The translations under genes and the position numbers were made by a program. Under the pieces are notes generated by a model. The model saw only the letters and a program-made list of their open reading frames with translations, searched no databases and was not told the DNA's origin. Below, one piece after another: positions 3,958 through 56,499 of a DNA stretch of 64,000 nucleotides. The stretch's first letter is position 1; every line of letters starts with the position of its first letter. The DNA comes from an uncultured Actinomycetota bacterium (GTDB lineage Bacteria > Actinomycetota > Acidimicrobiia > Spongiisociales > UBA4744), in NCBI GenBank assembly GCA_963718995.1, contig CAVRAP010000008.1:1236-65235 (forward strand), in the 5' to 3' direction.

Positions 3958-4305
3958 ATGAGCAAAGGGAGAATTTTGATGGGTGAAAACGCTATGACGG
4001 TTACCGACGCGAACTTTGAGGAGTCCGTCGCCGGGGATAAGGCCGTACTGGTCGATTTCTGGGCTGAATGGTGCGGGCCGTGCAGGATGGTTGCCCCTGT
4101 CCTGGAAGAAATAGGCAAGGAATATCCGGATCAGATCACCATCGCCAAACTGAATGTCGACGAAAATCCTGCCGTTGCGGCCAATTACGACGTGATGTCG
4201 ATCCCAACCATGATCGTTTTCCAACAGGGCGTCGAAAAGAAACGCATCGTGGGAGCCCGACCCAAGCACATGATGGTGTCGGAACTCGCCCAGTTTCTGA
4301 ACTGA
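3958..4305 (+). CDS. trxA: thioredoxin
   Basis: WCGPC active site, ~108-aa thioredoxin fold; alternative starts at 3979 or 3994. Confidence 0.9.
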   Translation: MSKGRILMGENAMTVTDANFEESVAGDKAVLVDFWAEWCGPCRMVAPVLEEIGKEYPDQITIAKLNVDENPAVAANYDVMSIPTMIVFQQGVEKKRIVGARPKHMMVSELAQFLN

Positions 4306-4459
4306 GCCGTCGTATCTGCTCCGACGAGCGCTGGGACGTCGCCGCGCCCGTCGCGGCTTCTCGGGTCGCCTTTCCCTGGCCGGGTGCTGAACCGTCCTGA
4401 GCACCATCCGATCTTCGCCCATCTATCCGCGTATCAACCAAACCTGCGACGATAGAGAC

Positions 4460-5470
4460 ATGAGGCTCTACCGTTTGGGAGACGCGGGGACTGCGGTGCG
4501 GGATATCCAGGACCGGCTCAGCGCACTCGGCTACCCGTGCAGCGCGGACCCGCGCAGCGAGTACGGCCAAGCCACCCTTTCTGCGGTTGTTGGTTTCCAG
4601 CGCCGTCGCGGCCTTCCCGCTGATGGAATCGTCGGGTCGGAGACCTGGAGAGCGATCTACGAGGCCGGGTTTCGCCTGGGTGACCGTTTGCTCTACCTCC
4701 GCCGTCCGATGCTGCGCGGTGATGATGTCGCCGAACTTCAACGCAGGCTCAACTCACTCGGGTTTGATGCCGGCAAGATCGACGGGATACTCGGTTCCAA
4801 TACGTTGCGGGCCCTGGTCGACTTCCAGCAGAACCGGCGAATGGCAGAAGACGGCATCGCAGGACCCCGCACGCTCGCCGAGCTTCGCCTCGTGGCAAGA
4901 GCCACGCAGAAGACGGGTCGCGAGGCTATCCGCGAGCGCGAGTGGCTCCGCGAACTTCCCCACTCGGTAGTCGGGGCCCACATCTTCCTCGATCCAGCCT
5001 GCCGTGACACAGACGAGGCCGACCGGACCTGGTCGGCGGCCAGCGCAACCGCCTCGATTTTGCAGCAACTGGGAGCAATCCCGCTCCTGTCACGAAGCAG
5101 CGACACCACGCTCCCCGAGCGGATTCGAGCGCGTCGCGCGAACCGCCTCGGCGCGTCGCTCATTGTCTCGTTTCAGCTTCCCTATGCCGAACCGGCGTCC
5201 GTATTCTTCTTCGCCTCACCGATGAGCAGGAGTGAGGCGGGGGCCATGCTGGCTGCGGCCATCTCCGAACGGCTCGGTCTGCCCGTCGAAGGCCGCGCCC
5301 ACCCGATCCTCAAGGAGACGAGAGCGCCGGCCGTCGTGGTGGCGACCGACACAATGAACGAGGCAGCGGGCAAGGTCGTGGCTGAGGCGATCAGCGGGTT
5401 CTTCTCTTCCGCCCAGACCGACGTCGACAACCCTCCCCCCCACGGTTCTGGACTATCGGGCCTCCTCTAG
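4460..5470 (+). CDS. cwlM: N-acetylmuramoyl-L-alanine amidase (CwlM-like): two peptidoglycan-binding repeats plus an amidase_3 domain
   Basis: Two PG_binding_1-like repeats (ALGY...GxxT / LGFDAGKIDGILGSNT) followed by an amidase_3-like region; synteny with mycobacterial cwlM. Confidence 0.8.
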   Translation: MRLYRLGDAGTAVRDIQDRLSALGYPCSADPRSEYGQATLSAVVGFQRRRGLPADGIVGSETWRAIYEAGFRLGDRLLYLRRPMLRGDDVAELQRRLNSLGFDAGKIDGILGSNTLRALVDFQQNRRMAEDGIAGPRTLAELRLVARATQKTGREAIREREWLRELPHSVVGAHIFLDPACRDTDEADRTWSAASATASILQQLGAIPLLSRSSDTTLPERIRARRANRLGASLIVSFQLPYAEPASVFFFASPMSRSEAGAMLAAAISERLGLPVEGRAHPILKETRAPAVVVATDTMNEAAGKVVAEAISGFFSSAQTDVDNPPPHGSGLSGLL

Positions 5471-5480
5471 GCTTTCACTA

Positions 5481-5498
5481 TTACGTCACGTGACGTAA
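5481..5498. repeat. perfect 18-bp palindrome TTACGTCACGTGACGTAA between convergent cwlM and parB; candidate bidirectional terminator hairpin or protein-binding site
   Basis: Equals its own reverse complement; sits in the 42-bp gap between two convergent stop codons. Confidence 0.4.
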
Positions 5499-5512
5499 TG
5501 CTCCCTGAGCCA

Positions 5513-6373
5513 TTAGGCCGAAAAGAACTGCCGATAGATCCGCTCGAGATCGTCGAGGGAGCTGAAATCGATGACCAGCTTGCCGCGATCGTTGGCGTAC
5601 TTGATCTTCACCCTGGTCGACAACTGGTTGCGAAGTCGCTGCTCGAGCTCGACGATGGCGGCCGGCCGCGCCGGGGTCGCCCGCCGGCCGCTGTGATCCT
5701 CGGACACTGCCTGGTTGCGCGATCGGACCGCATCCTCTACTTGACGTACAGACCAACCTTCTTCGACTGCCCGATCGGCGATGTGCTCTGCAAATTTACG
5801 GTCCTCGAGACCAAGCAACGCCCGTGCATGTCCCGCCGACAGCTCACCCCGTTCCAGCTTCCCCTGGATGGCAGCCGGAAGTTGCAGGAGACGGAGAGAG
5901 TTGGTGATCGCCGACCGACTCTTCCCAACCCGGTTGCCCACCTCTTCGTGGGTAAGCCCGAAATCTTCTAACAACTCCTGGTAGGCAGTGGCTTCCTCGA
6001 GAGCGCTGAGATCCTCCCGCTGGAGGTTTTCCACCAGAGCCTCGGTAAGAAGCGACCGATCGTCGCTCTCCCTGATAATGGCAGGGATTTCCGTGAGACC
6101 GACCTTCCTGGCAGCTCTCCACCGTCGTTCGCCGGCAACCAGCGTGTATGAACCCTCTTCCGCTTCGCGAACGATGATGGGCTGCAAAACCCCGACCTCT
6201 ACGATCGACGCAGCCAATGAAGCGAGGGCCTCTTCGTCGAACATGGACCGGGGCTGATGGGGGTTTGCCGAGACACGGTCGATCGGAATAACCGCAAAGC
6301 CGAGGTGGTTCTCCTCGCCTTTCGGGATGAGCGCCTCGAGTCCTCGTCCAAGTCCACTCCTACGCGTTGCCAT
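5513..6373 (-). CDS. parB: chromosome partitioning protein ParB
   Basis: GLGRGLEALI N-terminus, ParB box II (GERRWRAA), HTH; SD GGAGG 9 nt upstream of the ATG. Confidence 0.9.
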   Translation of the reverse strand: MATRRSGLGRGLEALIPKGEENHLGFAVIPIDRVSANPHQPRSMFDEEALASLAASIVEVGVLQPIIVREAEEGSYTLVAGERRWRAARKVGLTEIPAIIRESDDRSLLTEALVENLQREDLSALEEATAYQELLEDFGLTHEEVGNRVGKSRSAITNSLRLLQLPAAIQGKLERGELSAGHARALLGLEDRKFAEHIADRAVEEGWSVRQVEDAVRSRNQAVSEDHSGRRATPARPAAIVELEQRLRNQLSTRVKIKYANDRGKLVIDFSSLDDLERIYRQFFSA

Positions 6374-6386
6374 GGGTAGATGCCTC

Positions 6387-7174
6387 CTAGTCGCGACCGT
6401 GTCGCCTGCGAAACTCTCGTCCCAGTTCCCGATACACGATCGCCGCCCCTACTCATTGGATCAAATGCCTCGATGGGTTCTCCATAGGATGGCGCCTCGG
6501 ACAAACGCACCGATCGGGGAATGACGGTCTTGAACGCCACATCGCCAAAGAAGTTCCTGACTTGCGCCACCACATCTCTCGAGAGGTTCGTGCGACCATC
6601 GAACATAGTCAGAACGACCCCGCCGATCTTGAGATCACGATTGAGGTTGCCGGAAACGAGTTCAATATTCTTCATCAATTGGCTGAGTCCCTCGAGGGCG
6701 TAGTACTCGCACTGAATCGGGATCAAAACTTCGCTCGAGGCGGCCAGGGCATTGATCGTCAAGAGGCCCAGGGATGGTGGGCAATCGATCAGAACGAAAT
6801 CGAAGTCCTTCTCAATATGGGAAAAGGCTTCCCGTAGGCGCAATTTCGCGGGAGAACATCGAAACCAGTTCGATTTCCGAGCCTGCCAGGTCGATCGTAG
6901 CCGGAACAACAAAGAGATCACGGACGCTCGTTGGTTCGATAACATCCACCAGGGGAGCGTTCCGAATGATGACGTCGTAAATTGAAGAGGTTATGGCAGA
7001 TCGGTCGATGCCGAGACCGGAGGTGCTGTTTCCCTGGGGATCGAGATCGACCACGAGGACCCGCTCGCCCTGATAGGACAGGGCGGCAGCCAGATTGATC
7101 GCGGTGGTTGACTTCCCCACGCCACCCTTCTGGTTGGTGATAGCGACAACGGTGAAGTCGTGTTCAGTGTTCAC
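6387..7174 (-). CDS. parA: chromosome partitioning ATPase ParA/Soj, interrupted in this sequence by two apparent +1 frameshifts (near 6844 and near 6445)
   Basis: N-terminal Walker A (KGGVGKST) and C-terminal part lie in different frames; removing one base from the aaa/ttt run at 6844-6846 restores SRELRLREAFSHIEKDFDFVLIDCPPSLG. A third frame gives the canonical C-terminus SRGAIVYRELGREF ending in a TAG that overlaps the parB SD. GTG start at 7174. Confidence 0.75.
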
Positions 7175-7817
7175 TGGGCTCCATGATAAGAAGTGAGACG
7201 GCGCCGTCAAGGACCGTTGCCGGAACCTCAACAATCCGCAGCGATCGTCCCGAGGCCGAAGGTCCGGCCACCGAGAGAACCGACCGCCGGCCGCGGATGC
7301 CCACCACGGCTCTGCCCTCCGGACGACACAACGCATCGGCAACGTCCCGCGCCCGGGCGGGTGGGAAAACAGCCCTGAATACGGCGCTTTCCCACCCCGA
7401 AGGCTCCTCGAGGGCGTCGCCCCGCTGCACATCGACATTCTCGAGGCCCAGTCGCCGTACGGCCCGCCGGGCCAGATCGAGTCGGCGGTCCGACCGATCC
7501 AAGAGGATGATCTGGGTCTGTGGCCAGAGAATCGCCAGGGGAATACCAGGGAGGCCAACGCCCGCACCAACGTCGAGCACCTGGCTAGGAGGACCATCCG
7601 GCCATCCGACGGCAAAACTGAGGGAGTCGGCGATATGGCGGGTCCAGATCCGCTCAGACTCGTGCGGTCCGATGCCCCCGGCTCGCACGGCCTCGTCGTT
7701 CAACCACGTCACGAATGATTCGAGTTGCGTCCACTGCGCTGAGGCCAGGGGTTCCGGCCATTTCAGCCAGCCGAGGATCCGCCCGACAGCCTCACGGCCC
7801 TCCTCAGCATGTTTCAC
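7164..7817 (-). CDS. rsmG: 16S rRNA (guanine527-N7)-methyltransferase RsmG (GidB)
   Basis: SAM-binding LDVGAGVGLPG motif; conserved position between jag and parA. Confidence 0.85.
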   Translation of the reverse strand: MKHAEEGREAVGRILGWLKWPEPLASAQWTQLESFVTWLNDEAVRAGGIGPHESERIWTRHIADSLSFAVGWPDGPPSQVLDVGAGVGLPGIPLAILWPQTQIILLDRSDRRLDLARRAVRRLGLENVDVQRGDALEEPSGWESAVFRAVFPPARARDVADALCRPEGRAVVGIRGRRSVLSVAGPSASGRSLRIVEVPATVLDGAVSLLIMEPSEH

Positions 7818-7825
7818 GTGAAACT
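7810..7825. promoter_or_regulatory. parS centromere-like site (TGTTTCACGTGAAACT)
   Basis: 15/16 match to the parS consensus TGTTNCACGTGAAACA; overlaps the rsmG start codon. Confidence 0.75.
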
Positions 7826-7841
7826 CGAGGGATGCCCCTAC

Positions 7842-8771
7842 TTACTCGTCGGCCGCAATGACGACCGAGCGCCGTGGCTCTTCGCCTTCCGAATAGGTCC
7901 GGAGGCCTTCCATCTCGCCAATGGTGTCGTGAATGACCTTGCGCTCCGCAGCATTCATGGGTTCGACCATGACTTCACCGCCCTCGTCTAGGACCTGTTG
8001 GCCCAAGCGCTGGGCATAGATCTTCAGCGCTTCGCGCCGACGCTCTGCATATCCGGCAATATCGAGTCTGATTCGGGCAGATTCCTGGGTCTTTCGCTGC
8101 ACAACCGTCTTGGCCAACTCGTGAATGGACTGCAGAATCACGCCTCGCGACCCCACCAGCGCCTCGGTTTCGCTCCCGAGCACATCCGCGTAGATGATAT
8201 CGTCGTCAACTCGTGTCTCAACGGTTCCCTCGAGGCCGAACGCTCCGAGCAGACCCTCGAGGAATTCGCCCACGACGCTGGCCTGCTCTTCTCGGCTCAC
8301 GCTTTTCTCCTTTGGTTGTGTATCAGATGTTTTGCCGTCGCCGGCCTTGGCGGAACTTGCTGGAGTTCGTTGCTTGCCCGACGGGTTCGACCGACGAGAG
8401 GACCCCGCTTGTTGGGCCTGGCCGGACTTCTTTTGTTGATCGCGCCCCTGCCCGGAACGGCCCACCCGGTCTCGACCTTGGCCAGAAGCTGATCGCTGAT
8501 CGCCTCTTTGCCTGGAGCTGCCTGCTTGGGAACGCTCTTCCCGGGTGCCGTCGCCCTTACCCTTGGCAGAACGGGTGCGGCGCCGCTTCTTCGGACGGGG
8601 TTTCACACGGACGACGGCGTCGGTACGGCCAATGCCCAGAAAGCCTTTTTCGGGCTCCTGGAGCACCTCGACGTCTACATCATCACGGGATTCGATGCCC
8701 AACTCAGCCAACGCGGCCTCAACGGCTACCTCAACGGAAGGTCCTTTGACTTCTACCCACTCCACGGTCAC
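7842..8771 (-). CDS. jag: Jag/KhpB-family RNA-binding protein (Jag_N, KH, R3H) with a long basic low-complexity linker
   Basis: Jag N-terminal domain, C-terminal KH-R3H (GSRGVILQSIHELA...RKVIHDTI); conserved yidC-jag-rsmG order. Confidence 0.8.
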   Translation of the reverse strand: MTVEWVEVKGPSVEVAVEAALAELGIESRDDVDVEVLQEPEKGFLGIGRTDAVVRVKPRPKKRRRTRSAKGKGDGTREERSQAGSSRQRGDQRSASGQGRDRVGRSGQGRDQQKKSGQAQQAGSSRRSNPSGKQRTPASSAKAGDGKTSDTQPKEKSVSREEQASVVGEFLEGLLGAFGLEGTVETRVDDDIIYADVLGSETEALVGSRGVILQSIHELAKTVVQRKTQESARIRLDIAGYAERRREALKIYAQRLGQQVLDEGGEVMVEPMNAAERKVIHDTIGEMEGLRTYSEGEEPRRSVVIAADE

Positions 8772-10343: not shown

Positions 10344-10765
10344 CGAGACCCCGGTTTCGAAAGAAGAGGCAAACGAAAAGGTTACTGCGGGCTGGTCACT
10401 TGTCAAAGGCGTGGACGCCGGGCGACCGGCCGGTCAGGGCTACGGGTCGTGACGGAACGACCACCCGGGGAGGACCCCGCGAAGACTTTTCCTAGTGCGC
10501 GAAAAGCAGTCTTGCCCTGATTCGTGGGGGTAAGGGGGGGTTCGAGGGTTGTTCCAATCCGGCGAAAAGGAGTCCCAAGCTGGGCAAACTTAATCCGTCA
10601 TAGCGTCGGAAAAGTCTGGGAAGAGCCGATTTCGCGTTTTTGTGGGTCACCCGGTCACGTCATATACTCGCTCACCGTTGGCACCCGTGGAGTGGCCCCA
10701 CTTCCCCCGGATGGAATACATCCGGCTGTGGCCGCTTCGCCTGAGGGACCGACGTGCAGGCTGGT

Positions 10766-10798
10766 TTCTCCACATATTGTGGACAGGTCTGTGGATAG
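10766..10798. promoter_or_regulatory. cluster of three DnaA boxes in the dnaA promoter region (TTCTCCACA, TTGTGGACA, TGTGGATAG)
   Basis: Matches to the actinobacterial DnaA-box consensus TTGTCCACA 40-70 bp upstream of the dnaA GTG; typical autoregulatory arrangement. Confidence 0.5.
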
Positions 10799-10837
10799 AG
10801 ATGTTGTAAGCAGACGTAGTGACTCGGGAGGGGACAC

Positions 10838-12208
10838 GTGGCGGAACCTCAGTCGCTGACGGGGGAAGTGGACTACTTCAGAAACGCGGTGCAATCCCGT
10901 GTGAGTCCCGTCAACTGGCAAACCTGGCTGGCTCCACTTGGAGTACGACCGAACGATGGTTCGGTCAGCATCACCGCACCAAGCGAATTCCATCTGCGGT
11001 GGGTCCGTGAGAAGCACTTGGCCGTTCTCGAGGAGGCCGCACTGGCAACGTTCGGGCCCGGGAGCGAACTGATCTTCGATATCGATCTCACCGACCTGGC
11101 GATGAGGGATACCAACTTCGAGGACGAGGAGGAAGGGCCGCCGGTCAGTGCCAACAGCCGCCCGCCCGAATTGGCGCCGGCAGAGCGGCGCCTCCAGGCC
11201 AAATACACCTTCGAAAATTTCGTCGTAGGACAATCAAACCGGTTCGCTCATGCAGCCGCGATGGCCGTCGCCGAACAACCCGGCGGGCATTACAACCCCC
11301 TCTTCATCTACGGCGGCGCCGGGCTGGGGAAGACCCATCTCCTCCACGCCGTCGGGCACCATGCTCTCGAGCTGCGGCCGGCCGCCGTTGTTCGCTACGT
11401 ATCTTCAGAGAACTTCTTCAATGAATTCATCGACGGGATCCGCAAGAAACGCATGGATGAGTTCAAAGCCCGATATCGCACGACCGATGTATTGCTCCTC
11501 GACGACGTGCAGTTCTTTGAGCGGAAGGAACAGATCCTCGAGGAGTTCTTCCACACCTTCAACGACCTGTACGAGGCCGGCAAGCAAATGGTCATCAGCT
11601 CCGACCGGCATCCCAAACACCTCGCGACCCTCGAAGACCGTCTGCGGAGCCGGTTCGAGTGGGGCCTCCTGACCGATATCCAACCACCCGACGTGGAGAC
11701 CCGTATTGCGATCCTTCGCAAGAACGCGGAGTTTGCTCCCAAGCCGGTTGGGGCCGACGTTCTTCATTTCATCGGTGAGCATGTCCAGGACAACATCCGG
11801 GAACTCGAAGGCGCTCTGACCCGCGTCACTGCTTATGCGGCCCTCACCAATCAGACCATTTCCCTCGAGATGGCCAAGGATGTACTGCAGGATCTGGTGC
11901 CGGCCGCATCACAACGACCCGTCACGGCCGAAGACATCATCAACGCCACTGCTGCTGCCTTCGGATTCTCTCCAGACGATCTCCGGAGCCCGAGCCGGCG
12001 TCAGCCCCTTGTCCTGTCTCGCCAGGTTGCGATGTACGTGTGTCGCGAACAAACCGATCTGTCTCTCCCGAAGATCGGGGCCCTGTTTGGCGGCCGGGAC
12101 CACACCACCGTCATGCACGCCATCGACAAAGTGAAGCGACTCTTGCTCACCGATCACCAGGTCTTTGAGCGAGTCACCGCTCTCTCCCAACAGCTGAGGA
12201 GAACGTGA
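10838..12208 (+). CDS. dnaA: chromosomal replication initiator protein DnaA
   Basis: AAA+ Walker A ([13 protein letters not shown]), Walker B (LLLDDVQF), DnaA signature, C-terminal DNA-binding domain (VAMYVCRE...[20 protein letters not shown]); GTG start with SD GGGAGGGG. Confidence 0.95.
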
Positions 12209-12397
12209 TCTTGTCCACACGAAGCTGCGGTCTTGTCGCGGGTGCGGTGGATAACGCCGACACCTGTCCCCATGGGGTGTGGACGGACCGCAGGTAAGGT
12301 GACCAGCCCTTTTGGTGAGTTCTCCCCAATCCACAGGGCCTACTACAACTACTACCGTTTAGTTACAAAAACATAGAAGCAGAAGGGATGGGACAAC
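12209..12397. other. oriC, chromosomal origin of replication in the dnaA-dnaN intergenic region
   Basis: At least five DnaA boxes (TTGTCCACA at 12211, GTGGATAAC at 12248, TGTCCCCA, TGTGGACGG at 12277, ATCCACAGG at 12329), then an AT-rich stretch (12341-12385) as a candidate DNA unwinding element. Confidence 0.7.
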
Positions 12398-13484
12398 TTG
12401 CGGATTCGAGCTGAAAGAGACGACCTGGCCGATGTGTTCTCGAGAGCCAATCGAGGAGTCGGGGTACGTCCTGCCCAGGCCATCCTGCAAGGCGTCTTGT
12501 GCGAGGTACAGGGCAACAACCTCAAAGTCACCGGGACCGACCTGGAGATGACCGTCAGGACCACCACAGAAGTGGAAGTCCTGGAGGAAGGTTCCATCGT
12601 GATCCCTGCCCGTTTGGCTACGGAGGCCATCAAGAAGATGCCGATCGGAGCAGTCACGCTTTCCTCGAGCGACGGCGAGGTCGAGATCATGGGAGCGGGA
12701 CCGCGCTTCAGCCTGCGGGAGCTGCCGGTGGACGAATTCCCCCATCTCGGTGAGGTGGACTTCACAGGAGCGGTTGACGCCGATGGCGACGAGTTGATTG
12801 CCGCCATTGCCCAGGCCACCGTGGGAGCTTCGATTGACTCAGCCCGACCCATCTTGACCGGGGTTCTCTTTGAGAAAGACGACGAGGGCGTCCGCCTGGT
12901 CGCGACCGACTCGTATCGGTCTGGCTGTTCGCAAGCTGCCCGGCGTTGCTTTGAAAGATTCGGGACTCGTGCCCGCTCGCGGGCTGCGGGAAATGAGCCG
13001 GACGGTCGGCGCCGCCAAGATGCAGTTCTCGATCCAGCAGCGAGAGGCCGTCTTCGGCTCCTCGCGCGGGTCGCTGACCTTGCGCCTCATCGAGGGAACC
13101 TTCCCCAACTACCGGCAGCTCCTTCCCGAGTCCTACCCCAATCGCGTGGTTGTTACCAAGGAAGGGTTGCTCGAAGCGCTCGGAAGGGCGTCCCTTGTGG
13201 CCGAGGATCACATTCCGGTGCGGCTCCGGTTGATGGAAGGTGGCGTCGAGGTCACGGTCACCCGCCAGGACGTTGGAGGCGAAACGGAACACATCCCCGG
13301 CGAGTATCAGGGCGAAGCTGAGGACGTGACCATTGCGTTCAACCCGCGTTACCTGACGGACGGGGTAGCGGCTATCGATTCGGACAAGGTGCAGATCGAG
13401 GTCACCGATGGACTCAAGCCAAGCGTGATCCGCGGCGTTGATGATGATCGGTTCACCTATCTGTTGATGCCCGTTCGCATCTGA
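12398..13484 (+). CDS. dnaN: DNA polymerase III beta sliding clamp; one apparent single-base insertion near 12920 splits it into two track ORFs
   Basis: N-terminal 175 aa in ORF 12398..13321 and C-terminal 190 aa in ORF 12870..13484 are colinear DnaN; deleting one T after cgg at ~12920 gives VATDSYRLAVRKLPG; TTG start with SD AAGGGA. Confidence 0.85.
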
Positions 13485-14579
13485 ATGGAGTTCTCCTGGC
13501 TCGAGCTCAGGGATTTCCGCTCGTACCGTGAACTTCGGATCGAACCCGATCCCTCCATCAACGTGCTGGTTGGGGCAAATGGTGCGGGGAAAACCAACCT
13601 CCTCGAGGGTGCTGCGTATCTCAGCGCCCTCCGTTCGTTCCGGGGGGCACCCGACGAAGCCTTGATCAACGACGAGTCTGAAGCAGCGGTAGTTCGGGGT
13701 GAGGTGCGACATGCGGAAAGCACCTCACTCATCGAACTCGAGCTCCCGCGCAGCGGCCGGCGGCGTGTCCGGGTGAACGGCCAGCGTCCGGCTCGTTCGA
13801 CAGATCTCCTGGGTCATGTGCGGGCGGTCATGTTCCTTCCCGATGACCTCGACATCGTCAAGAGGGGCCCGGCCTACAGACGGGACTTCCTCGATGCGGT
13901 CGCGGTGCAGCTCTGGCCGGGGGCCTACCTCGACCAGCAGGAATACGATCGGGCGTTGCGTCAGCGAAACTCACTGCTGCGGCAGTCGGGCTGGGACGTG
14001 GATCGGCCCACGCTGGCCGTCTGGGATCAACGGCTGTCACAGGCAGCCGGCAAAATGATGGTGCGTCGCGCCGGCGCAGCCGCTGCCCTGCGGGAACGTG
14101 TTGCGGAAACCTATGCCCGCCTTTCGGGGGCGGGGACGCCTGTTGAGATGCTCTATGCCTCGAAGTGGGGAGGCTCGTTGGAGGGACAACCAGCGGAGCA
14201 TACGGCGGTCCGGCTGGCCGAAGCCCTGGAAGGCAGCCGTCGGGCGGATACCGAACGGAGGGTGACGACCATGGGACCCCATCGAGACGAACCCTGGTTC
14301 ACGGTGGCGGGCCGCGACGCCAGGACCCGGGCCAGCCAAGGGGAGCAGCGAACGCTGGCCCTGAGCCTGCGCCTGGCTTCGCATGCGGCCATCAGTGAGG
14401 CCACCGGGGAAACGGCCTTGCTGCTCCTTGACGACGTTTTCTCCGAGTTGGATATGGAGCGAGCCAATGCATTGGCCGGCATGCTGCCACCGGCCCAGAC
14501 TTTCATAACGACGGCTCGGGAAGAGGAAGTGCCGGTGCACGGCCGCACCTTCGTGGTCGAGCCGGGGAGGATCCGATGA
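13485..14579 (+). CDS. recF: DNA replication and repair protein RecF
   Basis: Walker A (GANGAGKTNLLEG), SMC-like signature and Walker B (LLLDDVFSELD). Confidence 0.9.
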   Translation: MEFSWLELRDFRSYRELRIEPDPSINVLVGANGAGKTNLLEGAAYLSALRSFRGAPDEALINDESEAAVVRGEVRHAESTSLIELELPRSGRRRVRVNGQRPARSTDLLGHVRAVMFLPDDLDIVKRGPAYRRDFLDAVAVQLWPGAYLDQQEYDRALRQRNSLLRQSGWDVDRPTLAVWDQRLSQAAGKMMVRRAGAAAALRERVAETYARLSGAGTPVEMLYASKWGGSLEGQPAEHTAVRLAEALEGSRRADTERRVTTMGPHRDEPWFTVAGRDARTRASQGEQRTLALSLRLASHAAISEATGETALLLLDDVFSELDMERANALAGMLPPAQTFITTAREEEVPVHGRTFVVEPGRIR

Positions 14580-14887
14580 GCAAACTCGAACCGATGGGCG
14601 GCCTGGTAGCCCGGGCCCTGAAGAACCTCGGCGTCGAGCGACTCGATGTGACGCTCAGTCTGGTCGCCGAGTGGGACGAGCTCACGCCCGAACCGTGGCG
14701 GTCGCACGCTACGCCGCTGCTCCTCAAGGGAGGAGAGCTTCTCGTCGAAGCAGACTCTCCGCCGGCGGTCAGTCTCCTCCGGTACGCCGTCGGCGACCTC
14801 CTGCGGAGCCTCGATGAACGCTTTGGCGAGGGCGTCATCGGGTCGGTCCGCGTGCAGTCTCCGCCCCCGGCGGGTCGACGCGCCTAG
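14576..14887 (+). CDS. DUF721 (DciA-like) protein in the conserved recF-gyrB gap
   Basis: 103-aa ORF with 4-nt overlap to recF; same position as the mycobacterial DUF721 gene. Confidence 0.7.
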   Translation: MSKLEPMGGLVARALKNLGVERLDVTLSLVAEWDELTPEPWRSHATPLLLKGGELLVEADSPPAVSLLRYAVGDLLRSLDERFGEGVIGSVRVQSPPPAGRRA

Positions 14888-15054
14888 AGAGGGTCAAAGC
14901 ATTTGGAATGGTCCGTAGGTATTGGCGTTTTCGCCTCTTCAGAGCTTGGGGTAGTCGGCCCAAACGGGTATACTTACATGCGTGTAAACAAGGGCTCTGG
15001 CGAGACTCGTCGGGTGGTTTCGCTGTCGGCCCGTTTTCTTTTTGAAGGAGCGTT

Positions 15055-16978
15055 GTGAGTACTGCGAATCGCGCCTCTGAGAGGTACGAGGCCGCCGATA
15101 TCACCGTCCTCGAAGGCCTCGAGGCGGTCCGGCGCCGTCCGGGCATGTATATCGGATCGACCGGACCACGGGGCCTCCACCATCTCTTGTGGGAAGTGGT
15201 GGACAACTCGGTCGACGAGGCGATGGCCGGCTTCTGCACGCGTATTGATGTGACCATCCGCGAAGACGAAAGCGTGCAAGTACGGGACAACGGTCGCGGC
15301 ATCCCGGTCGACAGACACAAGAAGACCAAACAGTCGGCACTGACCACCGTTCTGACCACCCTGCACGCCGGGGGTAAGTTCGAAGCGGGCGCCTACCAGG
15401 TCTCCGGCGGCTTGCATGGCGTCGGCGTTTCGGTCGTCAACGCCTTGTCGGCTCGACTTGAAGCCGAGATTGTGCGCGACGGGTTCCAATGGACGCAGAT
15501 CTTCGAGGAAGGCTATCCCGATCGGTCCCGTCAAGAAGGGCAAACCCGCCAAACGGACCGGCACCCAGATCACCTATTGGCCGTCGCCGAAAACGTTCGT
15601 TGAAACCCGGTCCCTGGACCTGAGTATCGTGACGGCCCGGCTCCGCGAGATGGCATTCCTCAATCGGGGCCTGGAGATTCGACTCGTCGACGAACGAGAA
15701 GAAGAACCTGTCGAAGAGGTCTTTCACTACAAGGGTGGCCTGATCGACTACATCAAGCACCTCAACGCAACGAAGGATCCGCTGCACGCCCACATCATCT
15801 ACTTCGACGATCAGAGCGAAGATGCCGAAGTCGAGGTGGCGATGCAGTGGACGTCCTCATATACCGAGACGGTTCTGAGCTTCGCCAACAACATCAACAC
15901 CCATGAAGGCGGTACGCACGAGGAAGGGTTCAGAAAGGCACTGACGAGGGCGCTCAACGACTTCGCCAGATCCAAGGGGCTCCTCAAGGAGAAGGACGAA
16001 AACCTCACAGGCGAGGACGTGCGAGAAGGTTTGACGGCGGTGGTTTCGGTCAAGGTGCGCTCTCCGCAATTCGAGGGACAAACTAAGACCAAACTGGGGA
16101 ACACCGAGATCCGTGGCTATGTAGAGAAGACGCTCAATCGCCTCCTGCCCGAATGGCTGGAGAGGTACGGCGGCGAGGGACGCTCGATTGCGGACAAGAG
16201 CCTCATGGCTTCCCGGGCCAGGTTGGCAGCCCGCAAGGCAAGGGAGCTGACCCGGCGCAAGAGCATGCTCGAGTCGGCCAGCCTGCCCGGCAAGCTCGCC
16301 GATTGTTCATCGCGCGACGCATCGGTGAGTGAATTGTTCATCGTCGAGGGGGACAGCGCCGCCGGTCCCGCCAAGCAGGGACGAAACAGCGAAACTCAGG
16401 CAATCCTCCCCATTCGCGGCAAGATCATCAACGTTGAGAAGGCCCGTCTCGCGAAAGCCCTGCAAAACACGGAGATCCAGTCGCTGATAACCGCCATCGG
16501 GACGAGCATCGGCGAGGAATTCGATATCGCGAAGGCTCGCTACCACAAGGTGATTTTGCTGACCGACGCCGACGTAGACGGGGCTCATATCCGCACCCTG
16601 CTGCTGACGTTCTTCTTCCGTCATATGCGGCCCCTCATCGAGGCCGGGTACGTCTACTTCGCCCAACCCCCGCTCTATAGGGTCAAGGCCGGCAAAGAAG
16701 TTCACTACCTCGGGTCCGACGAGGAACTCGAGCAGCTCAGAGAAGAACTGAGCGGGAGAAAGCTCGACGTCAGCCGATTCAAAGGCCTTGGTGAAATGAA
16801 TGCCTCTGAGCTGCGAGACACCTCCATGGATCCCGCCCTGCGACATCTCGTCAGGGTCGAACTGGAGGACGCTGCGCTGTCGGAGGAGGTCTTCTCAACG
16901 CTGATGGGGGATGACGTCGCTTCCCGTAAACACTTTATCCAGCGCAATGCCAAGGACGTCCGGTTCCTCGACGTCTGA
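15055..16978 (+). CDS. gyrB: DNA gyrase subunit B; one apparent single-base insertion near 15520 splits it into two track ORFs
   Basis: N-terminal ATPase (ORF 15055..15603) and remainder (ORF 15416..16978) are colinear GyrB in frames offset by one; the junction reads ...QIFEEGYP / [26 protein letters not shown]; GTG start with SD GAAGGAG. Confidence 0.9.
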
Positions 16979-16993
16979 TAGGGAGAGACGAAC

Positions 16994-19447
16994 ATGGTCG
17001 ATGAAAGAACCTACGAAGAGAACAACCTCGTCGTCGACATCAACGATGAGGTCAAGAAGTCCTTTCTCGACTATGCCATGTCGGTCATCGTGTCGCGAGC
17101 CCTCCCCGACGTTCGGGACGGTTTGAAGCCGGTACAGCGTCGGATCGTGTATGCCATGTTCGAGGCCGGAATGCGGCCGGGGACCAGCTTTCGAAAGTGC
17201 GCGACCGTGGTCGGCAACGTCATGGGCAGCTATCACCCCCATGGCAACGATGCCATCTACGACGCCCTGGTTCGTCTCGGACAGGATTTCAGCTCTCGCT
17301 ATCCCTTGATCTCGCCCCAGGGCAACTTCGGGACCATCGACGACCCGCCGGCGGCCATGCGGTACACCGAGAGTCGCCTGTCGCCGATTGCCATGCACCT
17401 GCTGGAAGGAATTCGCGAGAACACGGTCGACTTTCAGGACAACTACAGCGGCGAATCATCGGAGCCGATCGTCTTGCCCGCCCGATACCCGAACCTTCTG
17501 GCCAACGGGGCCACCGGGATCGCCGTAGGCATGGCTACCAACATCCCACCCCACAACCTCGGCGAAGTGATTGATGCGGTCATTTTTGCGATCGATAACC
17601 CGGACGCACCGATCGAGGACTTCCTGAAGATCGTTAAGGGGCCGGACTTCCCGACGGGCGCCTACCTGGTCGGTACGAGCGGCATCCGCGATGCGCTGAC
17701 CACGGGACGAGGCTCGGTGAAGATGCGGGCCGTTACGGACGTTCAAGAGATCCGCAAGGGCCGCACGGCCATCATTGTCACCGAGCTGCCCTATCAGGTC
17801 TCTCAGGATCGGGTCCTGGCCAAGATCGCCGACCTCGTCCACGAGAAGAAGATCGCCGGAATATCCGATCTGCGCAACGAGAGTTCGGCCCGGCTCGGCA
17901 CCCGGTTGGTCATCGAACTCAAGCGGGACGCCGTCCCGCAGGTGGTGGTCAACCAGCTCTTCAAGATGACCCAGCTGCAGGAGACATTCGGGGTGAACGC
18001 GGTAGCGCTGGTCGACGGCGTCCCGCGCACCTTGAATATCGCCGAGATGGTCGGTTACTACATCGACCATCAGATGGAAGTAGTTGAACGGCGCACGCTC
18101 CATCGATTGGAGGACGCGAAGGCGAAAGCACATGTCCTCGAAGGGCTGATTATTGCCGTCGACAACATCGACGAAGTTGTGCAGATCATTCGTTCGTCCG
18201 AAGACACCCCGACGGCCAAAAGCCGCTTGATCGAGCGGTTCGGGCTCTCGGAGATCCAGGCGAACGCCATCCTGGAGATGCCCCTCCGTCGTCTGACTGC
18301 CCTGGAAACGGGGAAACTACGCGAGGACCTGCAGCAATTGAAGGACCTCGTCGCCGAGCTGGAGGCCATTTTGGCCGATCCCGCTCGCCGGCGGTCCATC
18401 ATCGTTGAGGAATTGACCGAAATCCGCCAGAAGTTCGCCGACAAGCGCCGGAGCAGGATCATTCCCGACGAAGGAGATCTCTCTCTGGAAGACCTCATTG
18501 CCGACGATGACCTCGTCGTGACGGTCTCCGCCAATGGATACCTCAAATCCGTGGAGGCCAGTATCTATCGAACCCAGGGCCGGGGGGGCCGGGGAGTCAA
18601 GGCGGCTTCGCTTCACGAGGACGACGTCGTCAACAAGCTCGTCCATACAACGGCGCATGCCTACCTGTTGTTCTTCACCAACCAGGGCAAGGTTCATCGG
18701 ATCAGGACGCACGAAATCCCCCGCAAAGACCGAACCGCGAAGGGTGTGTTGGCGCAATCGGTGCTTCCCCTCGAACCCGAAGAACGGATCGAGGCCGTGA
18801 TCGATACGCGCAACTATGAGACGTCGCGCTTTCTCGTGATGGTCACCAAGAAAGGCCTGGTCAAGAAGACGCCATTCAGCGACTACGACTCCCGGAATTC
18901 GACCCTGGTCGCCATCAACCTGGTTGAGGGAGATGAGCTGGTCGCCGTCCGTACCACCAATGGTGAGAACGACATGCTCCTATTCACCGAAATGGGCCAG
19001 GGGATCCGCTTCTCAGAGAAGGACCTGCGGCCGATGGGGCGGGCAACCCGTGGAGTGCGGGGCGTCAAGCTTCGTGAAGGAGACCGGGTCATCGGGGCCG
19101 CGTCGAGTTCCGATGGAGAGCAGGTCTTGCTCATCACCTCGGGCGGCTACGGAAAGCGCGTTGCGATGAGCGGGTTTCCCAATCAACGTCGCGGCGGTCT
19201 GGGAGTGAAGGCCATCAAGCTGACCAAGGTGCGCGGGACGCTCGTCGGTGCTCGAGCGATTCTCGACGGTACGCAGATCTTCGTTATCTCCTCGGACGGG
19301 GTGGTCATCCGGACCAAGGTGAATCAGATCAGCCGTCAGAAGCGGGAAGCCAGTGGTGTCAAGGTGATGAACATGCCTGCCGGTACGACCATCTCGGCAT
19401 TTGCACCTATCCCGAAGGAAGAAGAGGAAGAGGTTCCGGGGAACTAG
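16994..19447 (+). CDS. gyrA: DNA gyrase subunit A
   Basis: 817 aa with catalytic Tyr region, QRDR ([13 protein letters not shown]) and a GyrA-box-type C-terminal beta-pinwheel. Confidence 0.95.
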
Positions 19448-19538
19448 TCGACGGGCGACGTCGTTGCGTCGGGGGATGGATCACCGGGGTTACCGAGGTT
19501 GGGCGTTACACTCGCCCCCACACGAGGAGTTGGTGGAT

Positions 19539-20057
19539 ATGACATCCGTGCGGCGAGTACGCAGGGTCATACGAAAATTCGATCCGTGGACTGTTTTGAA
19601 GGTCTCGATCGTCTTCTACGCCGTGATGGCCGTTGCCATCGTTCTCGGCCTGGTCATCCTTTGGGCGGTGGTCAACAACGCCGGTATTCCCCAGGCCATC
19701 GAAGACTTCGGCAAGAAGATCACGCTGCTCGAGGCGGATGCGGAGTTGTTTGCCGACGGCGAGCGTTATCTGCGAGTCGCCGTCTTCCTCGGCGTCGTGT
19801 GGACCGTTCTCTTTACGGGGTTCACGACCCTGGCAGCCGTCATGTACAACCTCATCTCCGACATCGTCGGCGGGATTGAGATTGTCGTTCTGGAAGAGAC
19901 CCTCAACGCTCCGCAGGGCATGCAATCGGGCGTTCGCATTCCGCGTAGCTGGCAGACGACTACTCCTCCACCCCCCTCAGCCCTCCCGGCCGATCAGGTC
20001 GACCTGGCGACCGAAGAAGTGGTACTCAGCGAAGAACCTGCCGCGGTCTTCTTTTGA
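19539..20057 (+). CDS. DUF3566-family membrane protein conserved downstream of gyrA
   Basis: Internal ATG at 19539 with SD GAGGAG; two TM helices; position equals mycobacterial Rv0007. Confidence 0.65.
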   Translation: MTSVRRVRRVIRKFDPWTVLKVSIVFYAVMAVAIVLGLVILWAVVNNAGIPQAIEDFGKKITLLEADAELFADGERYLRVAVFLGVVWTVLFTGFTTLAAVMYNLISDIVGGIEIVVLEETLNAPQGMQSGVRIPRSWQTTTPPPPSALPADQVDLATEEVVLSEEPAAVFF

Positions 20058-20117
20058 GGTGCGCAGCTCGTAACGCACCCCGTCCTCCACGCGGCCGCAG
20101 TCGAGCGGCCGCTTTCG
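20058..20117 (+). terminator. GC-rich hairpins followed by TTTCG; candidate bidirectional terminator between convergent genes
   Basis: GGTGCG...CGCACC and GCGGCCGC-agtcgag-CGGCCGC stems followed by a T-tract, immediately after the stop at 20057. Confidence 0.5.
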
Positions 20118-21025: not shown

Positions 21026-21099
21026 CGGGCCAGTGTAGGGAGATTCTCTTGCCGGTCGGCAGGCGGCTAATCTTTGGACTGTCCGGTTGAGCCGGACAC

Positions 21100-21230
21100 C
21101 GTGAAGGTCCCATCAGTGGCTAAGAGCGAAGTCCGGTGCAAATCCGGCGCTGTCCCGCAACTGTGATGCCCTCTCTGGAGGGATGAGCCAGGTCGCCTGC
21201 CGTCACGGTCACGAAAGTGCTCTCGTAGGA
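21100..21230 (+). promoter_or_regulatory. cobalamin (B12) riboswitch in the leader of the btuFCD-like operon
   Basis: GGTGCAAATCCGGCGCTGTCCCGCAACTGTGA core plus B12 box GAGCCAGGTCGCCTGCC; SD GGAGGA of the downstream gene 5 nt before the GTG at 21286. Confidence 0.7.
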
Positions 21231-41267: not shown

Positions 41268-41409
41268 GGACCACACCGCTCCGGCAGGCTCGGACAACCC
41301 AGGTTTCCGAAACACGAGAACACGTACGGCTCATCAAAGGTGAGCGCATGTACGACCGTGCACCTGCCGTCGAATGCCACCACCCGGCGCTTTCCGAGTC
41401 GCCGGCTCC

Positions 41410-41510
41410 AGCCAGGCACTCCTGCAACACCCGGGACCGAGCGCTTAGGGCTGCTTCCTTCCGGACCTGACCCATTTCACGAAGTCCCGCCGCGCAGGAC
41501 CCGGCCTTCA
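41410..41510 (-). ncRNA. ffs: signal recognition particle RNA (4.5S / ffs), small bacterial type
   Basis: Minus-strand sequence has the invariant domain IV motif GGUCAGGUCCGGAAGGAAGCAGCC flanked by complementary arms (CCUGCGCGG...GCAGG; GGGAC...GUCCC); lies in an otherwise non-coding 380-bp gap. Confidence 0.6.
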
Positions 41511-41663
41511 ACGCTGCGTGCTCGGTGCTGACCCGAATGGCGGACACCCTCGGGCAGGGATTCGGCCCCGCTTGTAGAGGTTTTCGGGTACAGGGCACCC
41601 CTAGCGCCCCGCCTAGCACGATCGGAGAGAAGGGTACTACGTGCCTTGAAGTCATCGGTCGTT

Positions 41664-48950: not shown

Positions 48951-48954
<4 letters not shown>
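47197..48954 (-). CDS. DUF885-family protein (putative metallopeptidase-like), co-transcribed downstream of metH
   Basis: 585-aa ORF with the DUF885 core including the AIPGHHLQ motif; 4-nt overlap with the metH stop. Confidence 0.8.
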
Positions 48955-52412
<3,458 letters not shown>

Positions 52413-52530
52413 GCCGCTCCTTCGGATAGATCGAAGAGGAGCGAAAGCGCCACCTCATCGATCAGGCCTTGGCACCGTGATCCCGGGGATCGGTTGCCGC
52501 GGTTTCGTCGGGCCTGTCCCTCCACCGCTC
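52413..52530 (-). promoter_or_regulatory. SAM-I (S-box) riboswitch in the metH leader, with an SD-sequestering expression platform
   Basis: Minus strand: CUCAUCUUGAGCGGUGGAGGGACAGGCCCGACGAAACCGCGGCAACC...ACGGUGCCAAGGCCUGAUCGAUGAGG matches S-box P1-P4 conserved positions; downstream GCUCCU...GGAGCG hairpin occludes the SD before the ATG at 52412. Confidence 0.7.
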
Positions 52531-52640
52531 AAGATGAGTTCGCAGAAGCATACCCTCGGTCGATCGATGGTCAACATGCGGGGTTTTCGTTTACTCCGGG
52601 GTCGACTACCTTTAGCGAGCAAACCCCTCGTGGGGATTGT

Positions 52641-54160: not shown

Positions 54161-54327
54161 CGAGTCTGTTACCCATGCTGCACCAGTGGTTGGTGGAGCG
54201 GGTGGTCACGTGGGTGGCCCGCTGGTCAGGGGTCGACAGGCCGTTTGAGTGAGGAACTCGGTCGAAACGGAATCCCCCTCGCTGGTGTGCCCGCCGCAGC
54301 CGTCAAGGTCCGTGTACGGATGTTTCC

Positions 54328-55735
54328 TTAGGGTTGCCGGAAAGGGACGGAGTCGGCGATCGGCAAAGAGATCCGGACTGTTGCGCCCCCGCCGGGCGTG
54401 CCGGTGATGGCGACGTCACCCTGGTGCGATGAGACAACCTCGCGGACGATGGCCAGTCCGAGGCCGGCGCCTCCCTTGGTTCGGTCCCGGCCCCGATCCG
54501 GTCGTGCGAATCGGTCGAACACCAACTCGCGTTCGGATTCGGCTATCCCCGGTCCATGGTCGGCGACGGTGATGTGAGCGTGGGCATCGGTGCGATGCGC
54601 CTCCAGCTCAATCGGGGTAGACGCTCCGCCGTAGGCGACGGCGTTGGTGATGAGGTTTTCGATGGCCTGCCGCAACCAGACGGGATCGGCGTCGACCATG
54701 ATTGATCCGTCGGTGTCGACACGGATGTCGCAACCGGTGGAGATACGCATATCCTCGGCGATGTCCTTCACGAGGGCGCCGACATCCAGGCGCTCACGGC
54801 CGGAGCCGATCTCTCGATCGAGGCGGGCGAGCGCCAGCAGATCTTCAATCAACCGCCCGGCGCGATGGCTGGCTTCATTGATACGTTCCATCGCCCGATC
54901 GAGCTTCGGGCCCGGCTCCACCCCGCCTTCGGCGTAGAGCTCGGCGTATCCGGTGATGGCTGCAATCGGCGTCCGCAGCTCGTGGGAGGCATCGTCGGCA
55001 AAGCGGCGGAGGCGCTCGGCCTCGCGCAGGCGGTCCCGGTCGGCGCTCTCGATACGGGCGAGCATGTGGTCGAGTGCCGTCGCCAGTCTTCCGAGCTCGG
55101 TACTTGACTGGACCAGGTCGGCCCTTTTCGTGAGGTCACCCTCGGCGATGGCGCCGGCGGTGTCGATCATGTCGTCGACCGGTCGGAATCCTCTTCTGAG
55201 CAGCAACCACGCGACCGTGATTCCCGCCAGCGCCGCCATCAAGCTGACGGCCAGCGAGATCAAGACCGTTTGGCGGGCCGCCAAGTCCACTGAGTCCAGG
55301 GACCGGGCGAGCAGCTCATATCCATCGGGGCTCTCCCGGACCAAGGCGCGCACCGATCCCGAACCATCGATTGTCGCCCAGCGTGACGAAGGTTCCGGCG
55401 CTTCCACCCAGGTCTGCCTCGGTCAGATTGCTCACGTCCGGCAGGGGTTCAGGCTCGTCGGCGTACCCGGCGGGCTGTTCGAAGACGACCTCGCCATTCT
55501 GGTTGAAGCGAATCAGAGCGAAAGGTTGGAAGGGCTCGTCGCCGGGGGCGGGCACGGCCGGACTGGGACCGGGACCGGGTCGGGTGGAGAAGGCCAGCAG
55601 GTCTTCGTCCACCCGATCGATGAGAACCCGTCTGGTCGTCAGCGAAACGGCGGCGGCGATAGAGGCGCTGACAATGAGGATGATGAGCCCGACCACGATG
55701 GTCAGGCGACGCCGCAGCGTCCACGGCCGGCTCAT
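54328..55735 (-). CDS. two-component sensor histidine kinase (TM sensor, HAMP, HisKA, HATPase); one apparent frameshift between 55316 and 55407
   Basis: N-terminal TM plus sensor in ORF 55316..55756, remainder in ORF 54328..55407 (H-box DDASHELRTPIAAITGYAEL; N, G1, G2 boxes); ATGA overlap with the response regulator stop. Confidence 0.8.
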
Positions 55736-56424: not shown

Positions 56425-56499
56425 CGCCACAACTCTAGGGTCGCCGGCTGCGTCCCCTTCATCGTTCGGTAGCGATCGCGATCGGCCAAACATCCCGGC

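Follow-up and report, generated by a model that had tools for sequence, protein, structure and literature searches.

Single-base insertions splitting dnaN, gyrB and a histidine kinase gene in an uncultured Acidimicrobiia contig: probable long-read consensus errors

Introduction

Nanopore-only assemblies carry single-base indels that split conserved genes into open reading frames (ORFs) in adjacent frames, a truncated-protein or IDEEL-type signature that is expected at low coverage (PMC9262707, PMC13087279, PMC12313526). ONT-only bins below about 40x keep frameshifting indels (PMC9262707), and residual frameshifting indels are also documented in ONT soil assemblies (PMC13087279). The metagenome-assembled genomes (MAGs) of Microflora Danica are Nanopore-only and were produced by Flye assembly and one Medaka round (PMC12313526).

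Interrupted frames are also found in other settings. In programmed +1 frameshifting of the prfB / RF2 type, a +1 shift is needed to read through a gene whose halves are intact. In endosymbionts, transcriptional slippage on long poly-A/T tracts rescues essential genes that are frameshifted in the DNA. In true bacterial pseudogenes, the interrupted frame is deposited as split proteins. The locus described here resembles each of these systems in the respect given. It lies in a 64-kb stretch of DNA from an uncultured Acidimicrobiia bacterium, which is called the window below, and contains frameshifts in two essential replication genes.

Results

Frameshifts in dnaN and gyrB

The features of the two replication genes are as follows:

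12398..13484, + strand: dnaN (DNA polymerase III beta clamp), one surplus base, read in two frames; 361 aa when repaired
12918..12921, + strand: dnaN insertion site GGTC, from alignment; removing any single base restores TDSYR followed by LAVRK
15055..16978, + strand: gyrB (DNA gyrase subunit B), one surplus base, read in two frames; 640 aa when repaired
15517..15521, + strand: gyrB insertion site CCCGA, from alignment; relatives have CCG-GTC, CCC-CTC or CCC-ATC

The dnaN ORF at 12398..13321 consists of 174 native residues followed by 133 out-of-frame residues, and the remainder of the gene lies in the next frame at 12921..13484. The two pieces match positions 1-175 and 193-366 of the NCBIfam profile TIGR00663 (367 positions) with scores of 108.7 and 124.2 bits; the cut-off is 137.65, which neither deposited fragment reaches. 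Only the repaired gene gives the colinear full-length match, at about 360-370 aa, by which a DnaN is recognized; it shares 94% identity over 100% coverage with its best homologs, which are also 361 aa long, and the intact protein P0250 is 99.4% identical to it. The gyrB ORF at 15055..15603 is likewise composed of 155 native and 27 out-of-frame residues, with the remainder in 15521..16978, and the pieces match positions 4-153 and 157-641 of NF004189 (641 positions) with 262.9 and 716.5 bits (cut-off, 740). The colinear full-length match to NF004189/TIGR01059 in a conserved gene context identifies the gene as gyrB, as the order dnaA-dnaN-recF-gyrB-gyrA is confirmed in the window and is syntenic with eight relatives. 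The 643-codon gyrB ORFs of relatives match both halves with 92-98% identity.

In the multiple alignment, all eight aligned relatives have one base fewer at each of the two sites. This agrees with the sequence-only reading, which had placed the shifts at ~12920 and ~15520 by one extra base each, and had described the halves of both genes as colinear with full-length orthologs in adjacent frames; the TIGR00663 and NF004189 matches are colinear across the junctions. The identity of the surplus base is ambiguous at both sites. The same DnaN (SYR followed by LAV) is obtained by deleting G12918/9, T12920 or C12921, and the surplus base of gyrB is one of C15517-9, G15520 or A15521. At the dnaN site, the closest haplotype, L137, has TATCG-TCTGG (CGT CTG), and the other relatives have CGG (T/C)TG. 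The L137 sequence indicates that the surplus base of dnaN is G, and not T as had been proposed.

Further Lesions and Their Sequence Context

The frame of a distant kinase gene and three further regions are also affected:

54328..55735, - strand: sensor histidine kinase, HAMP/HisKA/HATPase, extra base at 55375/6; 468 aa when repaired
6387..7174, - strand: parA/soj, one +1 insertion at 6443 and another at 6844; 261 aa when repaired
19539..20073, + strand: conserved membrane-protein gene downstream of gyrA, +1 insertion at 20043
12261, no strand: private +1 insertion between dnaA and dnaN (oriC region); a DnaA-box-like 9-mer lies 7 nt away

Over 54324-56575 (2.25 kb), the window and the short-read contig L054 share 95.0% identity with a sole gap at 55375/6, which locates the kinase shift that had previously been confined to 55316-55407; intact orthologs of 468 aa, such as P0001, are equal in size to the repaired kinase. 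The insertion at 20043 alters the last ~9 codons of the membrane-protein gene and shifts its stop from 20071-73 to 20055-57. The insertion at 12261 may be an error or real because it is non-coding. The insertion at 6844 in parA, a gene that is dispensable in many bacteria, is also found in L137, within a block of ~550 nt over which the two assemblies are 100% identical, and could represent either true damage to a non-essential gene or a systematic error that recurs.

In total, the 39.7 kb covered by comparators contains seven lesions; all are +1 and six break a CDS. The three lesions of the sequence-only reading (dnaN, gyrB and the kinase) are thus all real features of the record, but its list lacked four more, and its rate of about one indel per 10-15 kb was too low, since the density is about one per 6 kb in the 39.7 kb compared and at least one per 9 kb in the whole window. 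Six of the seven lesions are concentrated in 6.4-20.1 kb, and the CDSs in 27.7-44.1 kb are free of them. The error rate is therefore strongly uneven along the window, for which an explanation is available by inference only and which weighs against the consensus-error reading. A burden of seven +1 insertions, of which six fall in 13.6 kb, with two essential genes struck, is improbable, which counts for an artefact.

When reading frames were traced along the whole window with a Viterbi scan based on codon usage, the shifts in dnaN, gyrB, parA (6844) and the kinase gene were recovered, with no additional mid-gene shift; two shifts near gene ends were missed by this method. Three groups of candidate splits were rejected on inspection: the FHA-domain gene pair at ~37.0 kb is an ordinary gene boundary, the candidates at 21286, 22155 and 23183 are also ordinary boundaries in the window with the shifts belonging to L009, and the ECF sigma gene at 60060 has no region-2 match in any other frame.

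The sites do not coincide with homopolymers, a check that had been suggested from the sequence, as the longest run within ±10 nt of all seven sites is 2-4 bases. Homopolymer miscounting was accordingly rejected as the cause, with no run longer than 4 at any site and with homopolymer-type insertions depleted in the larger set described below. No motif is shared by the seven insertion sites. The sequence CGATCG adjoins two of the seven insertions, a post hoc observation in a window with 70 CGATCG sites. A methylation-motif cause is kept as a lead only, on the grounds that the CGATCG at the gyrB site is itself a product of the insertion and that the association is post hoc.

Public Records and Relatives

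The lesions are part of the public record and were not introduced later. The separate protein entries comprise a GyrB stub of 182 aa, a C-terminal DnaN fragment of 163 aa and two kinase fragments, P0255 and P0257, of 139 and 338 aa between them, and these fragments sit on a 103,138-bp contig of NCBI/ENA. The repaired DnaN, GyrB (in Ile and Val versions), kinase and ParA have no exact match in a collection of 15 billion proteins, the best match being P0250 at 99.4%. Exact look-ups of RecF, GyrA and the kinase N-fragment of the window in a gene-position index returned none, and P0253 is likewise unrecorded. A degenerate 38-base pattern across the dnaN site, with 1-3 junction bases allowed, had no metagenome match.

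All insertions other than that at 6844 in parA are private to the window assembly. Over dnaA-recF, the long-read haplotype L137, which is ERZ25039508 contig_24306, shares 97-98% identity with the window; its dnaN is intact (361 aa), and its dnaA, recF and yidC are split. No second copy of dnaN or gyrB was found within the 64-kb window.

Selection on the Restored Frames

The ratio dN/dS, computed against L009, is 0.039 for dnaN and 0.038 for gyrB downstream of the shift and 0.004 for the mid-segment of parA, and is 0.026-0.069 for the intact genes dnaA, recF and gyrA. No stop is present in the restored frames. The restored frames are under purifying selection as strong as that in the intact neighboring genes, and neither the relaxed selection nor the further disabling lesions that mark a true pseudogene were found downstream of the shifts.

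Dependence on Sequencing Technology

The genes dnaA, dnaN, recF, gyrB and gyrA were compared between sequencing technologies. In 11 sister loci of Nanopore-only Microflora Danica MAGs, 28 frameshifts were found in 86 kb, with 6 of the 11 loci affected, whereas 12 loci of short-read MAGs contained 0 frameshifts in 83 kb (Fisher p = 0.0046). Apparent frameshifts in gyrB and recF of L006 were discarded as NN scaffold gaps, which are not indels. Two traits expected of a long-read artefact are present: the lesions are private (save 6844), and their class is frequent in Nanopore loci and absent in short-read loci. The window contig is held by NCBI and ENA and clusters with Microflora Danica contigs. 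This source signature, the co-clustering and the error profile suggest a Nanopore-only assembly of the Flye plus Medaka type as the most likely source of the window record.

Relation of the Inserted Bases to Neighboring Polymorphisms

The set examined here was drawn from the window, L009, L018 and L005 and comprised 60 private single-base insertions, and its statistics come mostly from L018 and L009; the window gives only 4-6 sites, of which 4/6 fit. The inserted base is the allele of a relative at the adjacent site in 48 of the 60 cases (80%), compared with a null of 36% (p = 5e-12). Among the CDS insertions, 34/47 fit two synonymous alleles in tandem, compared with 45% expected (p = 1e-4), and homopolymer-type insertions are depleted, at 28% compared with 47% expected (p = 0.005). 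At the dnaN site of the window, both alleles are present among the relatives.

Since the extra base most often reproduces the other allele of an adjacent polymorphic site, the alleles of two co-assembled strains appear to have been written one after the other. The origin of the extra base in such tandem retention at a single-nucleotide polymorphism (SNP) is, on balance, the explanation that we favor. In this process, reads of two close strains or species that occur together and are 95-97% identical here would be collapsed into a single contig, and the consensus step would retain both SNP alleles side by side, giving a +1 insertion. The Arg codons CGT/CGG would become CGGT in dnaN, the Pro codons CCC/CCG would become CCCG in gyrB, and the Gly codons GGC/GGG would become GGCG in the kinase gene. 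The process would also account for the preferential involvement of conserved housekeeping genes, in which related populations cross-recruit reads.

Discussion

The frameshifts in dnaN, gyrB and the kinase gene are very probably single-base consensus errors of long-read metagenome assembly, and the organism itself almost certainly has intact copies of these genes. As consensus errors, the frameshifts are therefore a data-quality warning and not biology. The sequence-quality reading that had been proposed from the window is upheld in this respect: the insertions are private, selection is intact, the class of lesion tracks the technology, and other genes are broken in L137.

Genuine mutations would give the same deposited record, with dnaN, gyrB, parA and the kinase gene pseudogenized in the lineage or in a subpopulation and rescued by intact copies elsewhere; the recurrence of the 6844 insertion in long-read L137, the dispensability of parA and the fact that the inspection covered a 64-kb window of the genome are in accord with this possibility. 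However, this window holds no second dnaN or gyrB, secondary lesions are absent, and the dN/dS of 0.004-0.04 in the restored frames is that of intact genes. The nearest haplotypes are intact, for dnaN in L137 and for the kinase in L054, and the lesion class, frequent in Nanopore assemblies of relatives, is missing from the 12 made from short reads. Moreover, seven independent +1 changes with zero -1 changes in 40 kb are unlike the mutational spectrum of a living lineage, and we regard genuine mutation as very improbable. The intact, conserved halves of each gene and the uniform +1 sign of the lesions would also suit programmed +1 ribosomal frameshifting or transcriptional slippage, by which full-length DnaN and GyrB could be produced. 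This interpretation is already contradicted because the shift sites are not conserved, in any ortholog. The seven sites have no common motif, and no in-frame stop or rare codon is present at the shift, with the zero frame open for 133 codons past the dnaN site and for 27 past the gyrB site. A similar-looking insertion is found at the non-coding position 12261. Slippage tracts are absent because homopolymers within 10 nt of the sites reach 4 bases at most, and neither the features of a programmed +1 frameshift nor the long A/T homopolymer of slippage rescue were found; decoding of the shifts is therefore improbable in the extreme. It is scarcely more credible that the DNA truly contains the extra bases and that the lineage tolerates the +1 shifts of dnaN and gyrB through unrecognized recoding or duplicated replication genes.

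If the insertions are artefacts, their cause may still be unrelated to polymorphism, namely random read noise at low coverage or a systematic basecalling error at a motif, such as a methylated site. ONT bins below ~40x retain indels (PMC9262707), the 6844 insertion, which turns TT into TTT, fits no two-allele model and is present again in L137, as a systematic error would give, and two of the seven insertions abut CGATCG, although this was noticed post hoc. Random noise does not predict the 80% match to the adjacent allele of a relative compared with 36%, and it predicts neither the enrichment at synonymous sites nor the depletion of homopolymer contexts. Such a cause is possible but rather unlikely. 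Tandem retention of alleles would make a wider statement, which we hold to be somewhat more probable than its opposite: Nanopore-only MAGs of strain-rich soils may systematically write SNP alleles in tandem, an under-described and predictable error class distinct from homopolymer errors.

ORF oddities in the window, including truncations, splits and small ORFs, should be compared with relatives before they are interpreted, above all in 6-20 kb. Public protein databases already contain the resulting GyrB, DnaN and kinase stubs as separate proteins. If the pattern holds, polymorphic sites could become the target when frameshifts are corrected in strain-rich long-read metagenomes, and the conserved core genes common to co-occurring relatives would be the most error-prone, contrary to the usual assumption.

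Comparison with Known Systems

In contrast to programmed frameshifting of the prfB / RF2 type, the lesions of the window have no conserved site or in-frame stop, occur in unrelated genes and include one in an intergenic position. The slippage rescue of endosymbionts needs tracts of ~9 or more bases, whereas the longest run near the sites of the window is 4. Unlike true pseudogenes, the affected genes show no extra lesions or relaxed selection, they include essential single-copy genes, and the closest haplotypes are intact. The indels of Nanopore-only assemblies share with the window the splitting of conserved genes by single bases. However, such indels are classically located in homopolymers, whereas the seven sites of the window lie in runs of 4 or fewer, all of its changes are insertions, and the base added in related MAGs most often repeats the other allele of a neighboring SNP.

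Replication-gene layout and frame shifts

The window lies close to the replication origin in the genome (62% GC) of an uncultured Acidimicrobiia bacterium; rsmG-parA-parB lie on the minus strand in the classical gene order, and the following features were located.

10838-12208, dnaA, which precedes dnaN
12398-13484, dnaN, in two frames
13485-14579, recF, after dnaN
between recF and gyrB, a DUF721-like gene
15055-16978, gyrB, in two frames
16994-19447, gyrA, after gyrB
41356-41621, minus strand, SRP RNA
48951-52412, minus strand, B12-dependent methionine synthase (1153 aa)
54328-55735, minus strand, histidine kinase

The dnaN ORF loses its native frame after ..TDSYR, and the remainder (LAVRKLPG...) is read in the next frame; in gyrB the break follows ..FEEGYP, and the next frame takes over with IGPVKKG.... 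The NCBIfam profiles run colinearly through both junctions (1-175 and 193-366 of 367 for dnaN, 4-153 and 157-641 of 641 for gyrB), so the sequence-only reading, which had placed a single-base insertion in each gene with the two halves in adjacent frames, was right in coordinates and description. The exact placement of the extra base is ambiguous, with 4-5 candidate positions per site. All eight aligned relatives have one base fewer at both sites, and removal of one base gives exactly the ortholog lengths of 361 aa for DnaN, 640 aa for GyrB and 468 aa for the kinase. A second copy of dnaN or gyrB was not found within the 64-kb window.

The cumulative GC skew reaches its minimum and turns at about 10-12 kb, which is consistent with oriC. 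DnaA-box-like 9-mers lie on both sides of dnaA (10766-10798 and 12211-12254). Just 3' of parB, a perfect 14-bp palindrome, ACGTCACGTGACGT (5483-5496), occurs once in the window and is kept in most of six aligned relatives, with one-base variants in loci L005 and L003; with its CACGTG core it resembles a parS-type centromere site. The gene at 21286 is preceded by a cobalamin riboswitch (21088-21218, plus strand) and the methionine synthase gene by a SAM riboswitch (52452-52540, minus strand); eight tRNAs are present, including four tRNA-Ser within 41.8-46.6 kb.

Census of the insertions

Colinear loci were collected by scanning one genome per GTDB species with RecF as the anchor. The closest, L009, shows 92.6% nucleotide identity over 3513-24574 and 95-98% over 10.7-20 kb. 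Its identity is mosaic, with 73-90% across the PG-binding gene, parB, parA and rsmG (4100-8000) against 95-98% from dnaA to gyrA (10700-20000), and dS is 0.6-0.76 for parA, several-fold above the 0.09-0.25 of dnaN and gyrB. In a seven-sequence alignment, six single-base insertions occur in the window alone.

6443, parA
6844, parA, also present in L137, a long-read contig (ERZ25039508 contig_24306) of the closest haplotype
12261, dnaA-dnaN spacer, 7 nt from one DnaA-box-like 9-mer
12921, dnaN
15517, gyrB
20043, last codons of the membrane-protein gene 3' of gyrA

The kinase frameshift proposed from the sequence also holds, as the short-read contig L054, 95.0% identical over 54324-56575, has its sole gap at 55375/6, and intact 468-aa orthologs align unbroken through the junction. 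The synteny of L054 ends exactly at 54324, the 3' end of the kinase gene and of the two-component pair, beyond which L054 has TetR and ABC-transporter genes and the window an MFS transporter; this position is where the gene content of these close relatives parts.

In total, the 39.7 kb that could be compared contain seven +1 insertions. Six of the seven interrupt a CDS, and six fall within 6.4-20.1 kb. The earlier estimate of about one indel per 10-15 kb is thus borne out in that indel errors are present; its density was too low and the clustering was missed. No private frameshifting indel was found in any CDS of 27.7-44.1 kb against nine short-read JGI contigs. Pfam domains are full length where comparator sequences were lacking, and a codon-usage frame scan of the whole window found no further mid-gene shifts.

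Selection, recoding and sequencing technology

Relative to L009, dN/dS in the restored frames is 0.039 for downstream dnaN, 0.038 for downstream gyrB and 0.004 for the middle of parA, compared with 0.026-0.069 for the intact dnaA, recF and gyrA, and no additional stops occur; in these respects the restored frames behave as living genes do. L137, a Flye-style contig that shares 97-98% identity with the window from dnaA to recF, encodes an intact 361-aa DnaN (P0250, a cluster member) with 99.4% identity to the repaired DnaN. Its own dnaA, recF and yidC are broken; therefore, the lesion positions change between assemblies. Recoding is not supported, because the sites lack a common motif, conservation, a stop at the shift and a slippery homopolymer, and the like-looking insertion at 12261 is intergenic.

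In dnaA, dnaN, recF, gyrB and gyrA, 28 frameshifts were counted across 11 loci of Microflora Danica MAGs and none across 12 loci of short-read MAGs (Fisher p=0.0046), that is, the lesion class tracks sequencing technology. The two apparent shifts of locus L006 are NN gaps. The Microflora Danica MAGs derive from Nanopore reads alone, with Flye as the assembler and a single round of Medaka polishing (PMC12313526). Private non-triplet indels number 57 over the 21 kb of locus L018; L018 and L048 have 8 and 13 frameshifts, respectively, in the five genes, and both stand as species representatives in the genome collection scanned. The retained purifying selection, the ortholog-length products, and lesions that follow technology and differ between assemblies support the original interpretation as sequence error.

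Origin of the extra bases

A coincidence with homopolymers, which had been raised from the sequence, is not borne out: runs within 10 nt of the lesions are at most 2-4 bases long, and homopolymer-type events make up 28% of 47 private CDS insertions pooled from the window, L009, L018 and L005, fewer than the 47% expected (p=0.005). Together these results rule out homopolymer miscounting as the cause. The inserted base equals a relative's allele at the adjoining column in 48 of 60 insertions, compared with 36% for random slots (p=5e-12), and the two neighboring bases are synonymous alternatives in 34 of the 47 CDS cases (45% expected, p=1e-4). The insertions thus tend to add the other allele of the site next to them, as the individual sites illustrate.

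dnaN, CG-G-T CTG: CGT in L137 and L005, CGG in L009, L001 and L002
gyrB, CC-C-G: CCC or CCG in relatives
kinase, GG-C-G: GGG in L054
spacer 12261, G-A-C-ACC: A in L009, C in L001

Near 6443, the window and L137 carry one +1 insertion each, 6 nt apart, each on a different SNP between the two haplotypes. Three Nanopore MAGs, each from another sample, have one +1 insertion apiece within the same 25 nt near the 3' end of gyrB (CTCCGC[G]GTC in L019 at ~13300 and L048 at ~13305; GAGGA[C]GG in L013 at ~13290-13310), where the doubled bases are two synonymous alleles of sister genomes and the short-read sister L012 is intact.

The simplest reading, and a reasonably probable one, is a merging of reads from close populations that occur together, in which the consensus step retained both alleles of a SNP; this would give a +1 insertion. 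Read noise, whether random or linked to motifs, is the main rival, and the TT-to-TTT event at 6844 suits it better than allele doubling. Two of the seven insertions touch CGATCG (6437-6442 and 15519-15524), which, as a post-hoc observation, could point to a bias of basecalling or consensus tied to the motif; the window has 70 such sites, and the one in gyrB is made by the insertion itself.

The event at 6844 lies in a parA block of about 550 nt (6450-7000) over which the window and L137 show 100% identity, extra T included. The flanking sequence diverges by 3-14%, and L137 is full of indels over 7.0-8.2 kb. The block may be a mosaic or chimeric consensus or a recent recombination. The insertion is either an error that recurs on one shared haplotype, perhaps through reads common to both contigs, or a real lesion of parA. 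Many bacteria can do without parA. This ambiguity leaves the conclusion on dnaN and gyrB unchanged.

Public record and comparison with known artefacts

One 103,138-bp contig in NCBI and ENA, whose sequencing platform we infer, carries the deposited RecF, GyrA and DUF721 products of the window together with both kinase fragments, a 163-aa C-terminal piece of DnaN and the 182-aa GyrB stub, which includes the out-of-frame residues; therefore, the errors are already in the public record. In practice, every ORF-level call in the window should be treated with caution, most of all at 6-20 kb, and the biological interest of the dnaN and gyrB frameshifts is low. Residual frameshifting indels are known in low-coverage bins of Nanopore-type data (PMC9262707) and in Nanopore soil data (PMC13087279), and the present frameshifts are almost certainly a sequence-quality artefact of this known kind with a somewhat unusual non-homopolymer signature.
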